In this document: in pieces, positions 5,736-61,035 of the stretch
Position numbering within the stretch: position 1 is the first letter of the stretch
How the letters are laid out: each line of letters begins with the position of its first letter
Origin: an uncultured Acidobacteriota bacterium
GTDB taxonomy: Bacteria > Acidobacteriota > Vicinamibacteria > Vicinamibacterales > UBA2999
DNA: 64,000 nucleotides
NCBI GenBank assembly: GCA_963814395.1
Contig: CAWFCS010000004.1
Location: 20,862-84,861 of the forward strand
Direction of reading: 5' to 3'
Notes under the pieces: model-generated
Told to the model about the DNA's origin: nothing
The model's database searches: none
What the model saw: the letters and a program-made list of their open reading frames with translations, nothing else
Translations under genes and position numbers: made by a program

Positions 5736-6662
5736 ATGCACCATTGGCAGCACACGATGTGGATCATGACGCTGGTGGCGGCCGCGGGGGCGGGCATGCC
5801 GGCGGCCGAGGGGCGCAAGCTGAACGTGGCCCATCGCGGCGCCTCGGCCTACGCGCCCGAGCACACGCTCGAGGCCTACGACCTGGCCATCACCCAAGGC
5901 GCCGACTTCGTGGAACAGGATTTGGCGGTCACGAAGGACGGCGTGCTCATCTGCCTGCACGACCCCTCGCTCGAGCGGACGACCGATGTCGAAGAGCGCT
6001 TTCCCGATCGCTCCAGCACGGTCACCGTCGAGGGACGCCCGCGCCGGGTGTGGCTGGCCAACGACTTCACGCTCGCCGAGATCAAGACGCTCGACGCCGG
6101 CTCCTGGTTCGCCGCCAAGTACGCCGGCGCGCGCGTGCCGACCTTCGACGAGGCGGTGGCGCGCATCCGCGGCAAGGCGGGCCTCTACCCTGAGCTGAAG
6201 ACGCCGGAGATCTACGAGGGCCGGAATGTCGACTTCGTGGCGCTGGTCGAGCAGGCGCTCGACCGCCTTGCGCTGCGCGGTGCGAAGGCCGACGCGAAGA
6301 CGCCCGTGATTCTGCAGACGTTCGGCGCCTCCACGGCCCGGGCGCTCGCCGCCCGCCGCATCGGCGTGCCGGTGGTGTTGCTCATTGGCGGCGTGCCGCC
6401 CACGTGGGATCCGCGCGCCGCCGTCGCCGAGTGGAAGGGCGTCGTGGCTGGCTTCGGGCCGGCCAAGGGGATCGTGACGAAGCACCCGGAGTTCGTGCGC
6501 CTGGCTCACGAGGCGGGCCTCACGGTCACGCCCTACACGTTCACGACGAAGACCCCGGCGGAGCAGACCTCGGTGGCCGCCGAGATGGAGCACTTCCTCT
6601 ACATACTCGGGGTGGACGCGGTGTTCACCGACAACCCCGACAAGTTCCCGCGCCGCCCCTAG
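5736..6662 (+). CDS. glycerophosphodiester phosphodiesterase (GlpQ/UgpQ family), secreted
   Basis: GDPD motifs NVAHRGASAYAPEHTLEAY, FVEQDLAVTKDGVLICLHD and YPELK. AAGGAG lies 7 nt before the ATG at 5736. N-terminal signal-like segment. Confidence 0.85.
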   Translation: MHHWQHTMWIMTLVAAAGAGMPAAEGRKLNVAHRGASAYAPEHTLEAYDLAITQGADFVEQDLAVTKDGVLICLHDPSLERTTDVEERFPDRSSTVTVEGRPRRVWLANDFTLAEIKTLDAGSWFAAKYAGARVPTFDEAVARIRGKAGLYPELKTPEIYEGRNVDFVALVEQALDRLALRGAKADAKTPVILQTFGASTARALAARRIGVPVVLLIGGVPPTWDPRAAVAEWKGVVAGFGPAKGIVTKHPEFVRLAHEAGLTVTPYTFTTKTPAEQTSVAAEMEHFLYILGVDAVFTDNPDKFPRRP

Positions 6663-6690
6663 CGCGGACAGCGCCGCATGCCGGCCGAAA

Positions 6691-7075
6691 TCAACGACCG
6701 GTGACCACGAGCGTGCCCTTCATGGTGCGGCACTGGGGGTCGCTCGACAGGCTGCAGTAGGTACTCGAACCGGCCCACCTGGTCGGCGCGGAACTCGAAG
6801 GTGATCACTTCACCGGCGCCGGCGCGCTTCATCACCCGGTAGGCGTCGATCGCGAAGCTGTGCGGCCCGCCCTCGCTGCGCAGGGTGATCGTGACGAGAT
6901 CGTTCTTCGCGACCTCGAGTCGATCGGGGTCGAAGCGCCCGTCCTTGGCCACGACCGTGAACGCCCGCCGGGTCGGCGCCACTTCTTGTGACGTCACTGC
7001 GCCTGACGGGCCCGCCAGGGCGGTCGTGAGGACGGGCAGGGCGGCGAACACGACCGCGAGCAGGCGGAGAGCCAT
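6691..7075 (-). pseudogene. small secreted cupredoxin-like protein, one +1 frameshift near 6760
   Basis: Signal peptide plus a cupredoxin-like body (DLVTITLRSEGGPHSFAID..GEVITFEFRADQVGRFEY). After one extra base at GAGTAC-C-TACTGC the frame continues YCSLSSDPQCRTMKGTLVVTGR to the stop at 6691-6693. The length is 3n+1. Confidence 0.55.
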
Positions 7076-7087
7076 GGAGGGATTGTA

Positions 7088-7264
7088 GGGGGACTGGGGG
7101 CTGGAGGCTAGGGGCTGGGGTGGGTCTCAAGAAAGACGAAGGGCCGGAAGCAAATGCTCCCGGCCCTTCGTTGTGAGTGTCGAACCTGGGTGTCACACCG
7201 TCACCGTGGCGTGCCTTGGTCCCCAGTCCCGAGTCCCTAGTCCCGCCGCGCCCTAAGGCGCGGC
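7088..7264. repeat. composite palindromic intergenic element: G-rich heptamer array, conserved hairpin, C-rich heptamer array, small hairpin
   Basis: 7088-7124 reads GGGGACT GGGGGCT GGAGGCT AGGGGCT GGGGTGG. 7136-7171 is a 12-bp perfect stem (ACGAAGGGCCGG/CCGGCCCTTCGT). 7218-7244 is the complement of GGGACTA GGGACTC GGGACTG GGGACC. 7245-7264 is GCCGCGCC-ctaa-GGCGCGGC. The core matches the element at 58116-58267. Confidence 0.8.
7125..7171 (-). terminator. rho-independent terminator downstream of pnp
   Basis: A 12-bp GC-rich perfect stem at 7136-7147 / 7160-7171. On the minus strand it is followed by CTTTCTT (complement of 7125-7135). Confidence 0.6.
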
Positions 7265-7267
7265 TGA

Positions 7268-9466
<2,199 letters not shown>

Positions 9467-17121: not shown

Positions 17122-17155
17122 CTAGAAACAAAAAAGAGTGGGCTACAGCCCACTC
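17122..17155 (-). terminator. rho-independent terminator between rimO and rimP
   Basis: A 9-bp stem AGAGTGGGC-taca-GCCCACTCT at 17134-17155. On the minus strand it is followed by TTTTTGTTTC (complement of 17124-17133). Confidence 0.75.
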
Positions 17156-17204
17156 TGGATTTCCCAGATCAGCACCGGACCCTTGAGTTTAGCATCCTGC
17201 TGGC

Positions 17205-18687
17205 TTACAGGTCCAGGGGCCTAGCGACCAGATCGTAGCCGCTGGGCCCCGACGATTTCCACGTCGAGGAACTGGCCGGGCCGCAAGACCGCCGGATCGG
17301 CCTCGGTCAGGAAGACCTGCGGGTCGATTTCGGGCGCCTGCCCTGAGAGCCGGCCGGTGAAGACCCACTCGTGTTCCGGGGACGGGCCGTCGACGACCAG
17401 ACGCGCACGGGCGCCGACGCGGGCCTTCTGGCGGGCGGCGACCAGCTTCTTCTGCGGTGGCCATCACCTTGCGCTGGCGGCGCGCCTTCTCCGCGGCGGG
17501 CACGTCGTCGGCCAGGTCGAAGGCCGAGGTGTCTTCCTCGTGGCTGTAGGTGAAGACGCCGACGTGGTCGAAGCCCACCGCCGTGATGAAGGCCAGCAGT
17601 TCCTGCACGTCGGCCTCGGTCTCGCCCGGGAAGCCGACGATGAAGGTGGTGCGCAGCGTGACGTCGGGCATCTTCGCCCGGATGTTGCCGAGCAGCCGCT
17701 CGTACGAGGCGCGCGTGCCCGGACGTTTCATGCGCTTCAGCACCGCGTCGGAGGCGTGCTGCAACGGCAGATCGATGTAGCGCACGACCTTCGTGCTGGC
17801 GGCGATGGCGTCGATGGTGGCGTCGGTGATGGTGGTGGGATAGAGATAGAGCAACCGCACCCATTCGATGCCGTCCACGCCGTCGAGCGCCCGGATCAAA
17901 CGCGGCAGGGCATCGCGCTCCTTGCGGTCGATGCCGTAGAAGGTGGTGTCCTGCGAGACCAGCAGCAGTTCCTTGACGCCTCTGGCGGCGAGCATGTGCG
18001 CCTCGTCGACCACCGACTCGATGGTGCGGCTGCGGTAGTGACCGCGCATCTTGGGGATCACGCAGAACGCGCACTTGTAGTCGCAGCCCTCGGCGATCTT
18101 GACGTAGGCGTAGTGGCCGGGGGTGGCCAGACGGCGTGGCGTGGTGGCGTCGTAGAGATAGGTGGGGAGATCCAGGCCGAAGGCAGGGACGAGGGACTGG
18201 GGACTGGGGACTGGGGCGGACTGTCCCGCTGCGGACGCTGTGGCGTGCTCAGCTGTCCAGGAGCACCATCGCTGCGCTCGGCGCTTTCGGATCGCGCTTG
18301 TAGAAGGTCAGGGGCGAGGCGCCGGCTGGCGCGCGCAGCGGTCGAGCCGGGCTGGATGGCCTCGAGGATGTTGGGCACGTCGCCGGTGCCGAGCAGGGCA
18401 TCGATCTCGGGGATTTCCTGCTGCAGTGTGTCGCGGTAGCGCTCGGCCAGGCAGCCGGTGACCACCAGGCGTCCGCCAGTGGCCTTCTTGCGCTCCGCCA
18501 TCTCGAGAATCGTGTCGATCGACTCCTGCTTGGCGCGGTCGATGAAGGCGCAGGTGTTCACGATCACCACGTCGGCGCCGTCGGCGTCGGTCGTGATCTC
18601 GTGCCCGGCCTGCTCGGCCATGCCCAACATCACCTCGGAATCGACGAGGTTCTTGGGGCAGCCGAGGGAGACGAAGCCGATCTTCAC
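17205..18687 (-). pseudogene. rimO: ribosomal protein S12 methylthiotransferase RimO, four +1 frameshifts, with a heptamer array inside the interdomain linker
   Basis: N-terminal MTTase domain [30 protein letters not shown]. Radical-SAM core [28 protein letters not shown]-like end QKKLVAARQ..LVVDGPSPEHEWVFTGRLSGQAPEIDP..GYDLVARPLDL then stop. Breaks sit near 17241 and 17457, plus two within 18255-18365. Length is 3n+1. Confidence 0.85.
18185..18219. repeat. heptamer array inside the rimO coding sequence
   Basis: Plus strand reads GGGACGA GGGACTG GGGACTG GGGACTG GGGCGGA. The sense (minus) strand is C-rich. In the frame that continues into the radical-SAM core it reads [26 protein letters not shown]. 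It contains no CTAG. Confidence 0.85.
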
Positions 18688-18691
18688 GGCA

Positions 18692-18719
18692 GGGACCAGG
18701 GACTGGGGACCGGGGACCA
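18692..18719. repeat. heptamer array 5 nt upstream of the rimO start codon
   Basis: Plus strand reads GGGACCA GGGACTG GGGACCG GGGACCA. Two GCTAGC palindromes at 18742-18747 and 18756-18761, 8 nt apart, follow it. Confidence 0.8.
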
Positions 18720-18837
18720 GACCCCAAGGACGCGGCGGGAGGCTAGCGGTTGGCTGCTAGCGGCGCAAGACATCCCAATACTGTACACCCCCACGGCCGC
18801 CCGTGCCTGTCGTGCTATACATGGCGCGCTCGTTGCC

Positions 18838-33491: not shown

Positions 33492-33531
33492 GGGACTAGG
33501 GACTAGGGACTGGGGACTAGGGACTAGGGAC
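33492..33531. repeat. heptamer tandem array (5.7 units) between the dehydratase gene and glgP
   Basis: Plus strand reads GGGACTA GGGACTA GGGACTG GGGACTA GGGACTA GGGAC. The TAG stop of the upstream gene (33524-33526) lies in unit 5. The array ends 10 nt before the glgP ATG. Confidence 0.9.
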
Positions 33532-34507
33532 GCGGGCTCGCCGGGCAGGCGCCCACGAGTGTCGCGAATCTGGAGAGGTCGATGTTGCCGCCGGACACGA
33601 TGGCCACGACCTGGCCGGGTCCGGCGCGACCGGACAGCGCAGCGGCCACGGCACAGGCCGCGGCGCCTTCGATGATGACGTGCGCGCGCTCGGCGGTGAG
33701 CTTCATGGCCGCGGCGGCGTCGTCGAGCGTGACCACGAGCGAGCCGGCAATCGCGCCGTGCAGCAGCGGCCACATCGACGGGAGCACCGAACGCCCGCCG
33801 GCGCCGTCGACGAACGACGTGCGCCACGCCTCGAACCGCTGCGGCGATCCGGCGGCCAGCGAGAGCGCCAGCGGCGACGCGGTTTCCGGTTCGGCGGCCA
33901 CGACGCGCACGTCGGGACGCCGGGCGTTCATGACGGCAGCGATGCCGGCCAGCAGGCCACCCCCGCCGATGGCGGCGACGACCGTGGAGACGCCGGGCAG
34001 GTCGTCGAGAATCTCGAGGCCAGCCGTGGCGTTACCGGCGATGAAGGCGTCGTCGTCGAACGGGTGCACGAAGTAGCCGTGCATGCGCTCCGAGGCGCGC
34101 GTTTCCACCGTCTTCCAGCACTCGTCGTAGGTGGCGCGCACGATCGTGGCGCCGAGCCGCTCGATCGCCCGCACCTTCGTCTCGGGCGCCGTGTCCATGA
34201 CCATCACGGAGCAGGGGGCGCCCACGGACCGCGCCGCGAAGGCCACGCCCTGCCCGGCGTTGCCCGCGCTCACCGTCCACACGCCGTCCTGCAGGTCGCG
34301 CGGACCGAGCTGGCGCACGGCATTGAAGGCCCCGCGCAGCTTGAACGATCCGATGGGCTGCAGGCACTCGAGCTTGAGGAAGACCTCGACCGGCTCGCCT
34401 TCAGGGGTCCGCACCGGCACGTCGAGCCGCACGAGCGGGGTGCGCACGGCCGCCGCATAGATGGCCGCGGCTGCGTCTTCTACCGCGCTGATGGGAATGT
34501 GCCGCAT
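33524..34507 (-). CDS. PLP-dependent threonine/serine dehydratase family enzyme
   Basis: LKLECLQPIGSFKLRGAFN holds the PLP-lysine motif. SAGNAGQGVAFAA and GGGGLLAGIA form the glycine-rich phosphate loop. Start taken at MRHIPISAV. Confidence 0.8.
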   Translation of the reverse strand: MRHIPISAVEDAAAAIYAAAVRTPLVRLDVPVRTPEGEPVEVFLKLECLQPIGSFKLRGAFNAVRQLGPRDLQDGVWTVSAGNAGQGVAFAARSVGAPCSVMVMDTAPETKVRAIERLGATIVRATYDECWKTVETRASERMHGYFVHPFDDDAFIAGNATAGLEILDDLPGVSTVVAAIGGGGLLAGIAAVMNARRPDVRVVAAEPETASPLALSLAAGSPQRFEAWRTSFVDGAGGRSVLPSMWPLLHGAIAGSLVVTLDDAAAAMKLTAERAHVIIEGAAACAVAAALSGRAGPGQVVAIVSGGNIDLSRFATLVGACPASPRP

Positions 34508-36924: not shown

Positions 36925-37011
36925 GCGGAAGTGGCGGAATTGGCAGACGCGCTAGCCTCAGGAGCTAGTCCGGGCAACCGGGTGAAGGTTCAAATCCTTT
37001 CTTCCGCACCA
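36925..37011 (+). tRNA. tRNA-Leu (anticodon CAG), class II with a long variable arm, CCA encoded
   Basis: Acceptor stem GCGGAAG/CTTCCGC. Anticodon stem CTAGC/GCTAG with loop CTCAGGA. Variable stem-loop CCGGGCAACCGGG. T arm GAAGGTTCAAATCCTTT. Terminal ACCA. Confidence 0.93.
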
Positions 37012-56430: not shown

Positions 56431-58080
56431 ATGAACAAGGAAATGATCATCTCGACCAATGGCCACGAAACCCGCGTGGCCATTCTCGAGGACGACCTGC
56501 TCGCCGAGGTGTTCATCGAGCGCGAGCGCAATCGCGGCGTGGTCGGCAACGTCTACAAGGGCCGGGTCTCGAAGGTGCTGCCCGGCATGCAGTCGGCGTT
56601 CGTCGACATCGGCCTCGAGCGCGACGGCTTCCTCTACGTGTCGGACGTGGTCAACACGATGGAGGAGTTCGAGCGCCTGAGCGGCGACGACGACGACGAG
56701 GAGACGCCGGCGGTGGCCGCCGAGTCGGCCATCGGCAGCGGCGCGGCCGACGTGGCGGCGGCGAGCGCGCCGGCGCCGTCGGGCGGACAGAGCGGCGGCC
56801 GGGGCCGTGGCGGGCGCGGCGGGCGCGGCGGCGAGCGCGACAAGAACGCGCCCGAGCCGAAGATCGAAGACCTGGTCAAGGAAGGCCAGGACATCATCGT
56901 GCAGGTGGCCAAGGAGCCGCTCGGCACCAAGGGCGCGCGCCTCACCTCGCACGTCACGATGCCCGGCCGCTTCCTGGTGTTCATGCCCACGGTGGACCAC
57001 GTCGGCGTGTCGCGCAAGATCGCGACGCGCGAGGAACGCAACCGGCTGCGCGGCATCGTCAAGGAGTTCCGCGACCAGCACCACTTCGGCGGCGGCGTGA
57101 TCATCCGCACCGCGGCCGAGGGCCGGCCCAAGGAAGACATCGTCTCGGACCTGCAGTACTTCCACCGCGTGTGGACCGAGATGCGTCACAAGTCCGAGAC
57201 CAGCCGCGCGCCGGCCACGGTGTTCCGCGAAGCCAGTCTCGTGGCCAAGCTGCTGCGCGACCTGCTGACCGACGACTACATCGCGATCCGCATCGACGAC
57301 CCGCGCGAACACGCGCGCATCATCGAGCTGCTCAACCGCATCATGCCGGCGATGTCGCCGCGGGTGCGGCTGCACGACAAGCCGTATCCGATCTTCGAGG
57401 AATACGGCGTGCAGGCCGAGCTCGACAAGGCGCTCAAGAGCAAGGTGTGGCTGAAGTCGGGCGGCTCGATCGTGATCAACCAGACCGAGGCGCTGGTCGC
57501 CATCGACGTGAACACCGGCCGCTACGTGGGCAAGAAGACCGCCGGCCGGCTCGAGGACACGATCATCAAGACCAACCTCGAGGCGGCCAAGGAGATCGTG
57601 CGGCAGATGCGCCTGCGCGACCTGGGCGGCATCATCGTGCTCGACTTCATCGACATGGAAGAGAAGAAGAACCGGCAGAAGGTCTTCCAGACGGTGGAGC
57701 ACGAGCTGCGGCGCGACCGCTCGCCGTCAAAGGCGCTGCAGGTCTCGGACTTCGGCCTGGTGATCGTGACGCGCAAGCGCGTCAAGCAGAGCCTCGAGCG
57801 CACCCTCACCGAGCCGTGCCCGTATTGCTCCGGGATCGGCACCATCAAGTCGAGCTCGACGGTGTGCTACGAGATTCTCACCGAGGTGAAGAAGGTGGGA
57901 CCGGACCTGGATGGCCTGGGCGTGCTGCTGCGGGTCAACCCCGACATCGCCCGCGCGCTCAAGGACGAAGAGCGCGGCGTGCTGCGCGACTTGAAGCAGA
58001 TGCTCGGCAAGGACGTGATCGTGAAGGCCGACGTGCAGCTGCACCACGAGCAGTTCGACGTGATGTCGATCGGCGGGTAG
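56431..58080 (+). CDS. rng: ribonuclease E/G family endoribonuclease (Rng-like)
   Basis: S1 domain GNVYKGRVSKVLPGMQSAFVDIG. Other motifs are KEPLGTKGARLTSHVTMPGRFLVFMP, VAIDVNTG, GGIIVLDFIDM and a Zn-link CPYCSGIG. It carries an acidic plus RGG-rich insertion at about 56653-56865. Confidence 0.9.
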   Translation: MNKEMIISTNGHETRVAILEDDLLAEVFIERERNRGVVGNVYKGRVSKVLPGMQSAFVDIGLERDGFLYVSDVVNTMEEFERLSGDDDDEETPAVAAESAIGSGAADVAAASAPAPSGGQSGGRGRGGRGGRGGERDKNAPEPKIEDLVKEGQDIIVQVAKEPLGTKGARLTSHVTMPGRFLVFMPTVDHVGVSRKIATREERNRLRGIVKEFRDQHHFGGGVIIRTAAEGRPKEDIVSDLQYFHRVWTEMRHKSETSRAPATVFREASLVAKLLRDLLTDDYIAIRIDDPREHARIIELLNRIMPAMSPRVRLHDKPYPIFEEYGVQAELDKALKSKVWLKSGGSIVINQTEALVAIDVNTGRYVGKKTAGRLEDTIIKTNLEAAKEIVRQMRLRDLGGIIVLDFIDMEEKKNRQKVFQTVEHELRRDRSPSKALQVSDFGLVIVTRKRVKQSLERTLTEPCPYCSGIGTIKSSSTVCYEILTEVKKVGPDLDGLGVLLRVNPDIARALKDEERGVLRDLKQMLGKDVIVKADVQLHHEQFDVMSIGG

Positions 58081-58115: not shown

Positions 58116-58267
58116 GGGACTGGGGGCTGGGGGCGAGGGCCTGCCAGAAACGGCGAAGGGCCGGGCGATTCGCCCGGCCCTTCGCTTTGTACGGTGTGGC
58201 GGCTGGACTGGTACGTTACTAGCCCCAGCCCCCAGCCCCCAGCCCCCAGTCCCTAGAACCTAGAACC
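58116..58267. repeat. composite palindromic intergenic element: 19-bp perfect inverted heptamer arrays flanking a 15-bp hairpin
   Basis: GGGACTGGGGGCTGGGGGC at 58116-58134 is the exact reverse complement of 58235-58253. The central hairpin is at 58153-58185. The right array extends at 7-nt period through AGTCCCT AGAACCT AGAACCT (to 58267) and contains the receptor gene's TAG stop. Confidence 0.85.
58153..58190. terminator. bidirectional rho-independent terminator between convergent rng and the TonB-dependent receptor gene
   Basis: Perfect 15-bp stem GCGAAGGGCCGGGCG-att-CGCCCGGCCCTTCGC. It is followed by TTTGT on the plus strand and by CGTTTCT on the minus strand. Confidence 0.7.
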
Positions 58268-61035
58268 TGAAAATCGCCGACACCCGGTAGCGGCGGGGCA
58301 GCTGGAACGAGCCGCGCGCCGTGGCCTTGCCGAAGTTGTCGACGGCCGTCGCGCACGCTGCGGTGGCCGACGTACCGCAGAACGCGGTGTTGTTCGAGAT
58401 GATCTTGGCTTCGCGGTTGGTGACGTTGAACGCCTCGCCCTTGAAGCCGACCTGCGTGCGCGCTGGACCGCGCCAGGTCACTTCGACCGAGCCGTCGACA
58501 TACCATTCGATGCCGTCGACCGGGTCGGAACCGCGTTCGTTGTAGAAGTAGACGGCGGTCGATCCCTGGTTCAGCAGCGTGCCGGGCAGCAGCACGTTGA
58601 CCGAGCGCTGCTTCTCGTAGCGGCGCTTCGAGATCGCTTCTGCCAGGGCGCCCACGCTCAGGTTGATCGGGCCGATCGGCCGCACGTAGGCGCCGTTCAG
58701 TTTGAAGTTGTGGGGCCGGTCGTAGATCGGCCGGCCGTACTTGTTGTCGCCGTTCTGCACCTCGGCGCAGGGAATCACGCCGTTGACCCCCACCGTGGTG
58801 TCGACCGTGGTGCGGCACTGTGCGTCGAGGTAGTCGCCCAGGCTGGTGAAGGTCTGGTCGAAGTGGTTGCCCTCGGTGCGCGAGTAGGTGTAGCTCGCCG
58901 CCGCGTTCCAGTTGTTCGAGAAGCGCTTCTCGAAGGTGGCCTGCACGCCGCGATACTGACGCTCGGCCGCGTCGTAGTTCACGACCTGACGGTTGATCGA
59001 GTTGTCGGCGTTGAAGGTGCGGACGTCGTCGATCAGATCCTTCCAGTCGCGCGTGATGAAGCGCACGCCGGCAGCCAGGCTGCGGCCGAACTGCCGCTGC
59101 ACACCCACCGTGAACTCGTCCAGGTAGGACGGCGTGAGGTCGGCGTTGGGGCGGAAGGTCGAGCCGCCGATGCGCACCTGGTTCTGCAGGGCGTAGGCGC
59201 TGCCGTTCCACGCGTAGTTGTCGTAGTCGGCCTGCTGCGGCACGCCGGCGAAGGCATCCGAGAAGCTCTGGATGATGCCGGCGTAATAGCGGCCGAAACT
59301 GCCGAGCACGATGGTCTTGCCGTCCCCGGTCACGTTGTAGCTGGCCGACACACGCGGCGCGAGCACGGTCGTGTCGACCGTGTCGGCGGCGAGGTCGCTC
59401 GTGCCGACCTGCTTCTCGACGCGTACGCCCGCCTCGACGAAGAGCCGGCTGGTGACGTCGAACTTGTCGCGCAGGTAGAACGCGTAGTTCTTGCCTTCCG
59501 ACGTGGACGCGCCGGAGAGGTAGTCGCGCCGGAACTGCGGCACCAGGGTGCCGGTCGCCTGATTGAACGACTCGGCGATGTAGTACTGCTTGTTCGGGTA
59601 GTCGAACTGCGAACCCGATTCCACCGTCTGGAAGTCGAACCCCGCCTTCACGTTGTGACTACGCGAGCCGAGACTGAAGAACCAGGTGCTGGCCAGGTTG
59701 GCCTGCTGGCGCGGACGATTCGTGAAGCCGTCGAAGGTGGCGCCGTTGTAGTTGCGGTTGTCCGCCTGGGAGAACACCGGGGCATTCGAGCCAATCCGGC
59801 CGGCCTCGAAGGTGGTGACGTCGAGCCGCGAGGTGTAGGTGCCCACCGCTGCTTCCACCGCCCAGTTGTCGCTGAGCACGCCGTTCCACTGCCCGGCCCA
59901 CGAATCCGAGCTCTGGTTCTGCGAGGTCAGGGCTTCCAGTTCGGCCGCGGCCGAGGCCGCCGGCCAGTAGTCGATGACGAAGCCAGTCGTTGGGCGAGCG
60001 GAAGTACTTCACCCAGGCCGAGTGGCCGTCGCTGATCTGCACGGTGGCGCGCACGTTGAGGAAGTTGTTCTCGGTGCTCTGCTGGTAGTTCTCGGGGATC
60101 GGGCCGCTGGTCTGGCGCTGCGGCGTGGTGTTGGTGGCGTACTCGTGCGCGGCGAAGAACCACGCCCGGTCCTTGAGCAGCGGGCCGCCCAGGGTGGTGG
60201 CGTAGACGGGGTTGACCTTGTCGAACTTGGCCCGTTCGAGCGACACGCCTGTCACTTCGCTCTTGGTCGAGTTCTGCTTGTCCCAGTTGTCGTTGATGAC
60301 GATGTATTTGGCCGAGCCCTCGAAGCGGTTGGTGCCCGACTTGGTGATGATGTTCACGATCGCGCCCTGGCCGCGGCCGTATTCGACCGACGCCGCCGAG
60401 GTCGACACCGACACTTCCTGGATGGCTTCGAAGTTGAGGTTCGCGCCGAAGGTGCCGGTCGTCGGGTCGGTGGTGTCGACCGAGTCCATGATGAAGAGGT
60501 TGCTGCTCGTGAGCGCGCCGAGCGCGTTCACGTTGCCCGTGCCCACCACGCCTGGCGTCACGCCGATGAGGTTCTGGTAGCTGCGGCCGACCGGCAGCCG
60601 CTCGAATTCCTCGCGGCGCACGCGCGTGTTGGCGGTCACGTTGGTGAGGTCGACGATCGGCGTCTCGCCGGTGACGGTCACCGAGTCGGTGAGGCCGCCG
60701 ACCTTGAGCGCGAACGGCACGTTCGTGGTCTTCTCGGTCTCGACGAGGTTGTCGGTGAGCCGCAGTGGCGCGAAGCCGGCCAGGTTCGCTTCGACGGTGT
60801 AGTTGCCGATCGACACGGCGGCAAATGCGTAGCGGCCGTTCTCGTCGGTGACCACCGACCGCACGACGCCGCGTTCCTGGCTCGTGAGCGTGACGGTGAC
60901 GCCGGGCAGCACACCGCCGCTGACGTCTTGCACGACGCCCGCGACCGTGCCGGTCTGGGCGGGTTGGGCCCAGGCCATCGGGGCCAGGGCGATGGTCAAC
61001 AAGGCCGCAACCCACACGGATAACAGTCGAGACAT
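58260..61035 (-). pseudogene. TonB-dependent receptor, Oar-like (carboxypeptidase-regulatory-like N-domain), one +1 frameshift near 59982
   Basis: A signal peptide is followed by GTVAGVVQDVSGGVLPGVTVTLT..TDENGRYAF (CarbopepD_reg fold), a plug region, a long beta-barrel and a C-terminal aromatic end (AIFRF). ORFs 59659..61035 and 58260..59879 join across GACTGG-C-TTCGTC. Confidence 0.8.

Follow-up and report, generated by a model that had tools for sequence, protein, structure and literature searches.

Probable independent terminators, bracketed by inverted heptamer arrays, at two look-alike intergenic sites of a Vicinamibacterales bacterium

When two intergenic regions of one genome carry the same succession of parts around the same hairpin stem, are they copies of a single mobile element, or was each assembled in place? 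The question is raised by a stretch of 64,000 nucleotides (hereafter the window; GC content about 70%) from contig CAWFCS010000004.1 of an uncultured Acidobacteriota bacterium (assembly GCA_963814395.1, positions 20,862 to 84,861). Here, a first-pass annotation had described two composite sites, one downstream of pnp at 7 kb and one downstream of an RNase E/G-family gene at 58 kb, as homologous copies of a propagating or recruited element. Relatives of the encoded PNPase place the organism in the Vicinamibacterales, the closest loci being L001 (94% identity), L041 (91%), L002 (90%) and L003 (89%). Our comparison with these and other relatives points to a different answer: each site is probably an intrinsic terminator bracketed by two inverted microsatellite arrays of the unit GGGRCTN, which belong to a class of G-quadruplex (G4)-type heptamers. 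As regards the identity of the parts and their origin, we consider this reading very likely. That the bracket insulates the neighbouring genes as one long stem is put forward tentatively, from predicted folds, at somewhat less than even likelihood. What looked like a two-copy mobile element would then be a microsatellite family decorating independent terminators.

On the plus strand, both sites run in the order G-rich heptamer array, A-tract, GC hairpin and C-rich array; the sequence bears out both the common arrangement and the inverted symmetry noticed at first. At 7 kb, the array at 7089-7124 is followed by AGAAAG (AGAAA at 7130-7134), a hairpin at 7136-7171, TTGT (7171-7174), a 47-nt spacer, a second array at 7219-7245, an 8-bp hairpin at 7245-7264 and the pnp stop codon. 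At 58 kb, the array at 58116-58139 is followed by AGAAA (58146-58150), a hairpin at 58153-58185, CTTTGT, a spacer and the array at 58223-58253. The same 15 nt, GGGACTGGGGGCTGG, open both G-rich arrays (7090-7104 and 58116-58130), and the stem core CGAAGGGCCGG/CCGGCCCTTCG is common to both hairpins: the exact 11-mer CGAAGGGCCGG lies at 7137-7147(+)/7160-7170(-) and 58154-58164(+)/58174-58184(-), just as annotated, and at no other site in the window. The inverted decamer pair reported at 7 kb is also real, CCCCAGTCCC at 7221-7230 having its partner GGGACTGGGG at 7090-7099, one base away from the 7089-7098 given originally. The 7 kb site is flanked on both sides by minus-strand genes, as had been said, namely pnp (7268..9466/9490, stop codon 7268-7270) and a cupredoxin-like gene (6659..7075, ATG 7073-7075). 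The 58 kb site separates two convergent genes, RNase G (rng, assigned to the RNase E/G family by Pfam; 56431..58080, plus strand) and an outer-membrane beta-barrel protein (OMP) gene on the minus strand, whose stop is at 58260.

Identical part order, a common 15-nt start with an identical 11-bp stem core, and inverted arms that resemble terminal inverted repeats are what one would expect of a mobile composite, that is, an array-hairpin-array unit akin to a miniature inverted-repeat transposable element (MITE) or a repetitive extragenic palindromic (REP) sequence, inserted at two loci. However, both hairpins are orthologous to hairpins in relatives with other arrays or none. The 7 kb hairpin (7136..7171, minus strand; 16 pairs, 11 of them G-C) is flagged by a terminator scan (7171..7136, then CTTTCTTGAG; tail TCTTTCTT). 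Read in the sense of pnp, its arms are ACGAAGGGCCGGGAGC..GCTTCCGGCCCTTCGT, followed by CTTTCTT, and the A-tract on its opposite side makes it look bidirectional. Orthologous hairpins stand ahead of the same cupredoxin CTACAAT..ATG in eight relatives; their stems read CGAAAGGCCGGAAG..CTTCCGGCCTTTTG in L001, CGAAAGGCCGGGGC.. in L006 and TCGGGCCGGAGC.. in L008, and are more diverged in L004, L041, L002, L003 and L021. RNAalifold finds compensatory double changes in 10 of the 12 predicted pairs across 9 orthologues, which, together with the scan, bears out the earlier assignment of this hairpin and CTTTCTT as the pnp terminator.

The hairpin between rng and the OMP gene (58153..58185, a perfect 15-bp stem, predicted to act in both directions) has a comparable record. 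Among the seven RNase G relatives examined, it is kept in five of 90-93% identity (L083, L204, L205, L206 and L207), with stems beginning ACGAAGGGCCCGG.. in L204 and L206 and GAAAGGGCCGGCTGG.. in L083; 13 pairs are kept across 6 orthologues, 4 of them with double changes. In L082 (RNase G 93%), no OMP gene, hairpin or arrays follow rng, and in L081, where RNase G is 99% identical, the 3' flank differs wholly from that of the window. The pnp tail TCTTTCTT is accepted by the scan, and in each of the 58 kb tails, CTTTGTAC (+) and CGTTTCTG (-), no more than 4 of 8 nt are T. A strict search, for a perfect stem of 8 bp with 5 or more T among the next 9 nt, gave only 29 matches in 0.8 Mb, mostly one conserved rimO/rimP terminator. 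Both hairpins resemble intrinsic bidirectional terminators in having a GC stem-loop after stop codons, an A-tract on one side, a partly T-rich stretch on the other, and compensatory changes, and depart from them in their short, interrupted U-tracts and in the flanking inverted microsatellite arms, which are not classical. Seen across relatives, each is best described as an old, locus-specific, vertically inherited predicted terminator. The ancestral cores that we infer differ between the loci, CGAAAGGCCGG at pnp (from L001 and L006) and ACGAAGGGCCCGG at rng (from L204 and L206), with AAAGGCCGG and AAGGGCCCGG, respectively, as putative older cores, and the identity of the 11-mer in this genome therefore looks convergent.

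Could such an identity arise twice? The hairpin GAAGGGCCGG N3-16 CCGGCCCTTC turns up in unrelated metagenome contigs, at least 120 of them, whose GC contents span 0.40-0.74 and which include a human-gut assembly. Among the matches listed, 38 carry the full 11-mer on both arms, with diverse loops, and flanking arrays are absent, the longest period-7 run within 150 nt being 10 bases; sharing of 14-mers between these loci and the window reflects GC-rich background only. Since the same stem recurs in so many unrelated contigs, the 11-bp core is a generic terminator stem, and its identity in two terminators is no evidence of homology. A role for the 11-mer as a terminator-borne DNA uptake sequence (of the DUS or USS kind) was considered and rejected: it occurs only in the two hairpins, and variants are at chance, 8 sites with at most one mismatch being found in the window where 4.7 are expected (9 of 100 shuffles reach 8).

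The remaining comparisons between the two sites go the same way. A MAFFT alignment of the regions has its invariant columns concentrated in the arrays and the stem core, and similarity in the left spacer, the loop and the right spacer does not exceed that of shuffles (P = 0.17, 0.44 and 0.96, respectively). For the hairpin part, then, the similarity is limited to generic terminator composition. The further family members that a profile hidden Markov model of the two copies had been expected to reveal did not appear: nhmmer found no third composite in 2.08 Mb, returning the two training copies plus partial matches to arrays alone or to the hairpin alone. Searching both composites by blastn against plasmid and phage collections gave no match, and the only hit of Rfam in the window at gathering thresholds is a tRNA at 36925-37008. 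At orthologous sites the composite is not present or absent as a unit; rather, as the 3' regions of the pnp orthologues illustrate, the hairpin stays and the arrays differ or are missing. The arrays also occur alone. Taken together with the stem core in unrelated contigs devoid of arrays, this makes insertion of a mobile composite at two loci extremely improbable. What survives of the original claim is that the resemblance is not pure coincidence, as both sites draw on a common heptamer family; homology and propagation lose their support with a generic core and hairpins inherited with their loci. The sites do share with REP sequences, bacterial interspersed mosaic elements (BIMEs) and MITEs an intergenic, palindromic nature, a frequent position at gene 3' ends and stable predicted RNA stem-loops, and REP stem-loops in E. 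coli shield upstream mRNA from 3' exonucleases. Unlike those elements, they lack a full-length consensus and internal homology between copies, nothing points to transposition, searches of mobile-element collections gave no match, and their arms are tandem heptamers that vary by locus and genome.

If the hairpins belong to their loci, where do the arrays belong? The heptamer pattern GGGRCTGGGGRCT, allowing at most 2 mismatches, has 29 matches in the window against 8.9 ± 3.1 in shuffles, none of 100 shuffles reaching 29. Seven GGGRCTN-type arrays lie at five loci, starting at 7089, 7219, 18186, 18692, 33492, 58116 and 58223; six are intergenic and one falls in the linker of rimO. By Tandem Repeats Finder (TRF), the period is 7 and the units GGGACTG, GGGGCTG and GGGACTA are repeated 2.7-5.7 times, and each of the seven is predicted to be quadruplex-prone, having 4-7 tracts of at least three G, loops of 3-4 nt and G4Hunter scores of 1.42-2.61. 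Four of them form the two inverted array pairs of the window. At 7 kb, the array at 7219..7245 (GGGACTA GGGACTC GGGACTG GGGAC; TRF 3.9 copies, four G-tracts, G4Hunter 1.62) is G-rich on the minus strand, in pnp sense, and starts 23 nt after the pnp stop. Its partner at 7089..7124 (4.6 copies, five G-tracts, 2.25), placed between the terminator and the cupredoxin promoter, is G-rich on the plus strand and C-rich in the sense of both flanking genes. At 58 kb, the array at 58116..58139 (2.7 copies, four G-tracts, 2.33) is G-rich on the plus strand, the sense strand of RNase G, 35 nt after its stop; facing it, TRF reports CCCCAGC x4.4 (+) and then CCTAGAA x2.4 over the OMP stop (58223..58268), G-rich on the minus strand in OMP sense and 6 nt from the stop. 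The other three are solitary. The GGGACTG array in the rimO linker (18186..18216; TRF and regular expression) is G-rich on the plus strand and C-rich in the sense of rimO, a minus-strand gene. A second (18692..18715; regular expression), G-rich on the plus, antisense strand, sits 4 nt upstream of the rimO GTG start, and a GGGACTA array with 7 G-tracts (33492..33536; TRF and regular expression), likewise G-rich on the plus, antisense strand, lies 10 nt upstream of the start of a glucan phosphorylase-like gene and overlaps the stop of the upstream pyridoxal phosphate (PLP)-enzyme gene. As GGGRCTN arrays stand alone at three window sites, they are not confined to the composite sites; they are a dispersed repeat family and not parts of a two-copy element.

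Their placement follows a strand rule: an array behind a stop codon has its G-rich strand in sense, and one ahead of a start codon has it in antisense. All six intergenic arrays of the window obey it and lie within about 35 nt of the ends of open reading frames (ORFs). When the window is taken together with the relatives' loci, 11 arrays at most 50 nt after a stop are G-rich on the sense strand (median distance 7 nt) and 11-12 arrays at most 50 nt before a start are G-rich on the antisense strand (median 10 nt), with 4-5 in the opposite arrangement, so that the rule holds in about 22 of 27 classifiable arrays; the ORFs are our own calls, filtered by GC content at third codon positions (GC3), and their start positions are approximate.

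Comparison with relatives shows what is kept and what is free to change. Among tandem repeats of at least 3 copies in 753 kb of Vicinamibacterales DNA, no period is as frequent as 7: 69 arrays have it, against 28 with period 6 and 20 with period 9. The unit itself varies among loci and genomes (GGGACTN, GGGACCN, GGGATTC, GCGGCTA, GGCGCTG and AAGCTGG), and other classes of Acidobacteriota have AGTGCTG, GATTTTG and GTAAATC. Of neighbouring arrays in the window and in the relatives' loci, 34 pairs were listed, several of them overlapping and with spacers of 9-232 nt: 23 match as reverse complements with 0-1 mismatch in the unit, and as direct repeats all but two pairs differ at 2-5 positions. At the pnp site, L001 has GCGGCTA x5.6 after the stop and L005 has GGGTAGT x5.4. 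Between rng and the OMP gene, the arms are built of GGGGCTG in the window, GCGGCTA/TAGCCGC in L206, GGGAACA/TGTTCCC in L207, a GGGAC-type unit in L205 and CCCGAGN in L083, and L204 has none. Upstream of rimO, arrays of other units occupy matching locus positions in at least 7 relatives (L001, L003, L011, L036, L037, L041 and L048), their context having been read directly in L001 alone. At orthologous sites, then, arrays change unit, change length or vanish, and the terminator between them is kept; the two arms, where present, are mutually reverse-complementary irrespective of unit. The composite of the window is the local form of a general inverted-array architecture.

Two loci from these comparisons deserve a separate mention. 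L081, at 6064-6239, carries an array of its own (GGGACGC/GGGTCCC/GGGGCTC) without the terminator of the window, and this flank marks the region downstream of rng as an apparent rearrangement hotspot. In Pyrinomonadales of lower GC content (L075:3052-3317 and L078:3562-3800), AT-rich arrays with the unit AGTCGTG, the pair GTAAATC/CGATTTA and GATTTTG flank the ORF of rpmJ (ribosomal protein L36), and the bracket architecture is therefore not restricted to G-rich units or to high-GC genomes.

Heptamer repeats of this kind have been met before in distant bacteria. A cyanobacterial repeat, STRR1, with the unit CCCCA(A/G)T, which corresponds to the Nostoc unit, is said to go back to work by Mazel and colleagues in 1990. 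The closest match to our arrays is the class of G4-type heptamer simple sequence repeats (SSRs) with the units GGGAATC in Xanthomonas and GGGGA(C/T)T in Nostoc (Rehm et al. 2015, PLoS One, PMC4692102). These are mainly intergenic, with four units preferred and 70-75 convergent inverted pairs per Xanthomonas genome; up to 50 bp beyond a stop their G-strand is the coding one, and up to 50 bp ahead of a start it is the non-coding one; close relatives vary while the repeat type is preserved; and their function is unknown (PMC4692102). Like them, the arrays described here are dispersed and mostly intergenic heptamers with tracts of three to four G, at least four tracts each, the same strand rule and frequent convergent inverted pairs, and among close relatives the repeat type persists through changes in length and sequence; the Nostoc GGGGACT/CCCCAGT is the main unit of the window in another register. 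Quadruplex formation was reported there from circular dichroism (CD) of repeat oligonucleotides, a set that includes (CCCCAGT)3CCCC, the C-strand of the Nostoc GGGGA(C/T)T repeat (PMC4692102), whereas here it is a prediction from sequence. Our host differs, being a Vicinamibacterales bacterium of 70% GC in a phylum, the Acidobacteriota, that does not figure in the text of PMC4692102, so that a known and functionally unexplained class now extends to the Vicinamibacterales. Two observations are added to it. A conserved terminator is central to the inverted pairs, a word that is absent from PMC4692102, and the unit is replaced between relatives (GGGRCTN, GCGGCTA, GGGAACA, GGGACCN) while arm complementarity and the spanning fold described below persist. 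The TAACTGA heptamer repeats of marine Beggiatoaceae, Cyanobacteria and Bacteroidetes, with 169 direct sets and one indirect (MacGregor 2015, PMC4679880), are a looser parallel: they too form arrays a few nucleotides upstream of starts, often of genes without a canonical ribosome-binding site, but they are AT-rich, not G4-prone, almost only direct, and not described as bracketing terminators.

What, if anything, would the brackets do? Regions of the window fold markedly better than their shuffles (-100.8, -131 and -127.5 kcal/mol; z -6.3, -9.1 and -8.2). In the predicted fold at 58 kb, 58235-58253 pairs perfectly with 58116-58134 over 19 bp, and all six orthologous rng-OMP regions fold as a stem that spans the intergenic region with the terminator at its apex, L204, which has no repeats, included. 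These models suggest a structural role for the spanning stem. We propose that the arrays would grow and turn over in place through replication slippage, their complementarity being maintained by selection for pairing or by hairpin-templated copying. A normally terminated RNA would consist of the G-arm and the terminator hairpin; a read-through RNA would gain the C-arm too, whereupon the arms could pair, over 19 bp at 58 kb and over 10 bp at 7 kb, so that the intergenic region would close into a single long stem-loop. Such a stem might insulate the neighbouring genes as a barrier to 3' exonucleases, as a double-stranded processing site, or as a backup where the U-tract of the terminator is weak. 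The C-rich arm was also considered as a Rho rut site for read-through RNA and set aside, as it would be sequestered by the G-arm.

Is the paired stem the active structure, or is it a quadruplex in the G-rich arm, formed in 3' untranslated region (UTR) RNA or in a displaced DNA strand? Such a quadruplex would make RNA polymerase pause, stand in the way of exonucleases or tune promoters close by, and the C-arm would be its mirror on the opposite strand. The tracts and loops of every window array (G4Hunter 1.4-2.6) are in line with this, as is the strand rule, by which a transcript has G-runs in its 3'UTR but not in its 5'UTR, and the CD evidence on repeat-derived oligonucleotides and the preference for four units (PMC4692102) can be read likewise. 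Yet heptamers without G3 tracts occupy the same orthologous positions (GCGGCTA in L001 and L206), and AAGCTGG, AGTGCTG and GATTTTG adopt the same inverted-pair layout in other Acidobacteriota, so that the conserved property is period 7 with arm complementarity and not G4 potential; the very stable duplex with the C-arm would moreover compete. We consider a quadruplex as the active structure to be quite unlikely.

Somewhat unlikely, and a stronger contender than the quadruplex, is a neutral origin, in which the arrays are functionless slippage debris tolerated only in non-coding DNA beside ORF ends and the arms were seeded from, or are homogenised by, a palindrome that already surrounded the terminator. 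Arrays are gained, lost and replaced among relatives with 89-94% PNPase identity, paired arms can be of unequal copy number (2.7 and 4.4 at 58 kb, for instance), in many bacteria heptamers outnumber every other class of long SSR, which Mrazek et al. (2007) reportedly attribute to slippage, and Rehm et al. found no function (PMC4692102), all of which sits well with neutrality. Against it, the spanning stem is predicted in all six rng-OMP regions despite four or five arm sequences, one region having no repeats at all, and pure slippage does not predict a strand rule that about 22 of 27 arrays follow. We estimate the probability that two independent arrays happen to be reverse complements at about 7 x 4^-7 per pair, and a structure-dependent process is thus needed for the complementarity. 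The replacement of units with pairing kept amounts to a natural covariation experiment, and makes it possible to put pairing, quadruplex and no role at all to the test.

Several observations weigh against bracketed terminators with pairing arms, and the proposed function in particular. The arms at 7 kb pair over 10 bp only (7090-7099 with 7221-7230), and their units differ, GGGGCTG-type on one side and GGGACTN-type on the other. No arrays are found at the pnp site of L002, L003 and L041, at 89-91% PNPase identity, a loss explained as readily by near-neutral microsatellite dynamics as by a function. Three of the seven window arrays have no partner arm, and pairing cannot therefore be the role of those three. 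The genome-wide census of arrays is extrapolated from 64 kb plus the relatives, and the two hairpins might conceivably share an ancient common origin.

The most far-reaching reading is perhaps that inverted arrays bracket intergenic regions throughout the Acidobacteriota and that these brackets are actively maintained and evolve fast, with the unit free to change and the arms kept complementary, and positioned against ORF ends, by RNA-stem selection or hairpin-templated copying. We regard this as unlikely. Were it true, the brackets would constitute a layer of gene insulation, or of control over 3' ends, that had gone unrecognised in a major soil phylum, and they might switch between G4 and duplex states.

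Around the 7 kb site, the extra hairpin annotated directly after the pnp stop (7245..7264, minus strand; 8 bp of GC, GCCGCGCC ctaa GGCGCGGC, loop of 4) is real and forms in the minimum-free-energy fold; it is absent from the relatives L001, L002, L003 and L041. A TACAAT hexamer at 7082..7087 on the minus strand, 6 nt upstream of the cupredoxin-like ATG, is a candidate -10 box on sequence grounds, and the CTACAAT position is kept upstream of the cupredoxin gene in L001, L002, L003, L006, L008, L041 and L045. The cupredoxin-like gene has no Shine-Dalgarno sequence, and its transcript is probably leaderless.

The arrays leave marks on the coding sequences beside them. The stop codons of the PLP-enzyme gene (33524-33526) and the OMP gene (58260-58262) fall inside TAG-bearing units, CCCTAGT and CCTAGAA, and in L001 the (GCGGCTA)5.6 array after the pnp stop places a TAG in every frame. 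A general role of the arrays as three-frame stops after ORFs was rejected, being true of some (at 33.5 kb and in L001) and not of the GGGGCTG arrays. Upstream of rimO, a degenerate GCTAGCGG-type repeat at 18732-18765 resembles the GCGGCTA family dominant in L001, L002 and L206, and suggests that a limited set of heptamer units is common to the clade. The rimO gene itself (17189-18687, minus strand) is broken as assembled, its N-terminal domain (ORF 18058..18687), a conserved stretch reading PLTFYKRDP and the radical-SAM part lying in three frames; there is a TGA near 18250, and the break region contains the CCCCAGT x3.4 array at 18186-18216. In L001, the rimO linker is in frame and has a TAGCCGC array instead. 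The break could be due to assembly indels, to a pseudogene, or to repeat-driven frame switching, 7 nt being a frame-shifting unit.

Two further features concern the terminators of this clade. Between rimO and a downstream rimP-like ORF (named from its sequence) lies a canonical terminator, AGAGTGGGCT..AGCCCACTCT followed by T5 (17135-17156, minus strand). More than 15 relatives have a hairpin of this type at a comparable place in the locus, and the base of its stem shows paired changes (GAGTGGGC.., AAGTGGGC.. and TAGTGGGC..), a conservation that appears unusually strong for a predicted terminator. Finally, GTACGG recurs 3-8 nt downstream of Vicinamibacterales terminator stems, at 58190-58196 in the window, after the pnp terminators of L002, L003, L004, L008 and L041, and at L003:21720, both before a promoter and between convergent genes.

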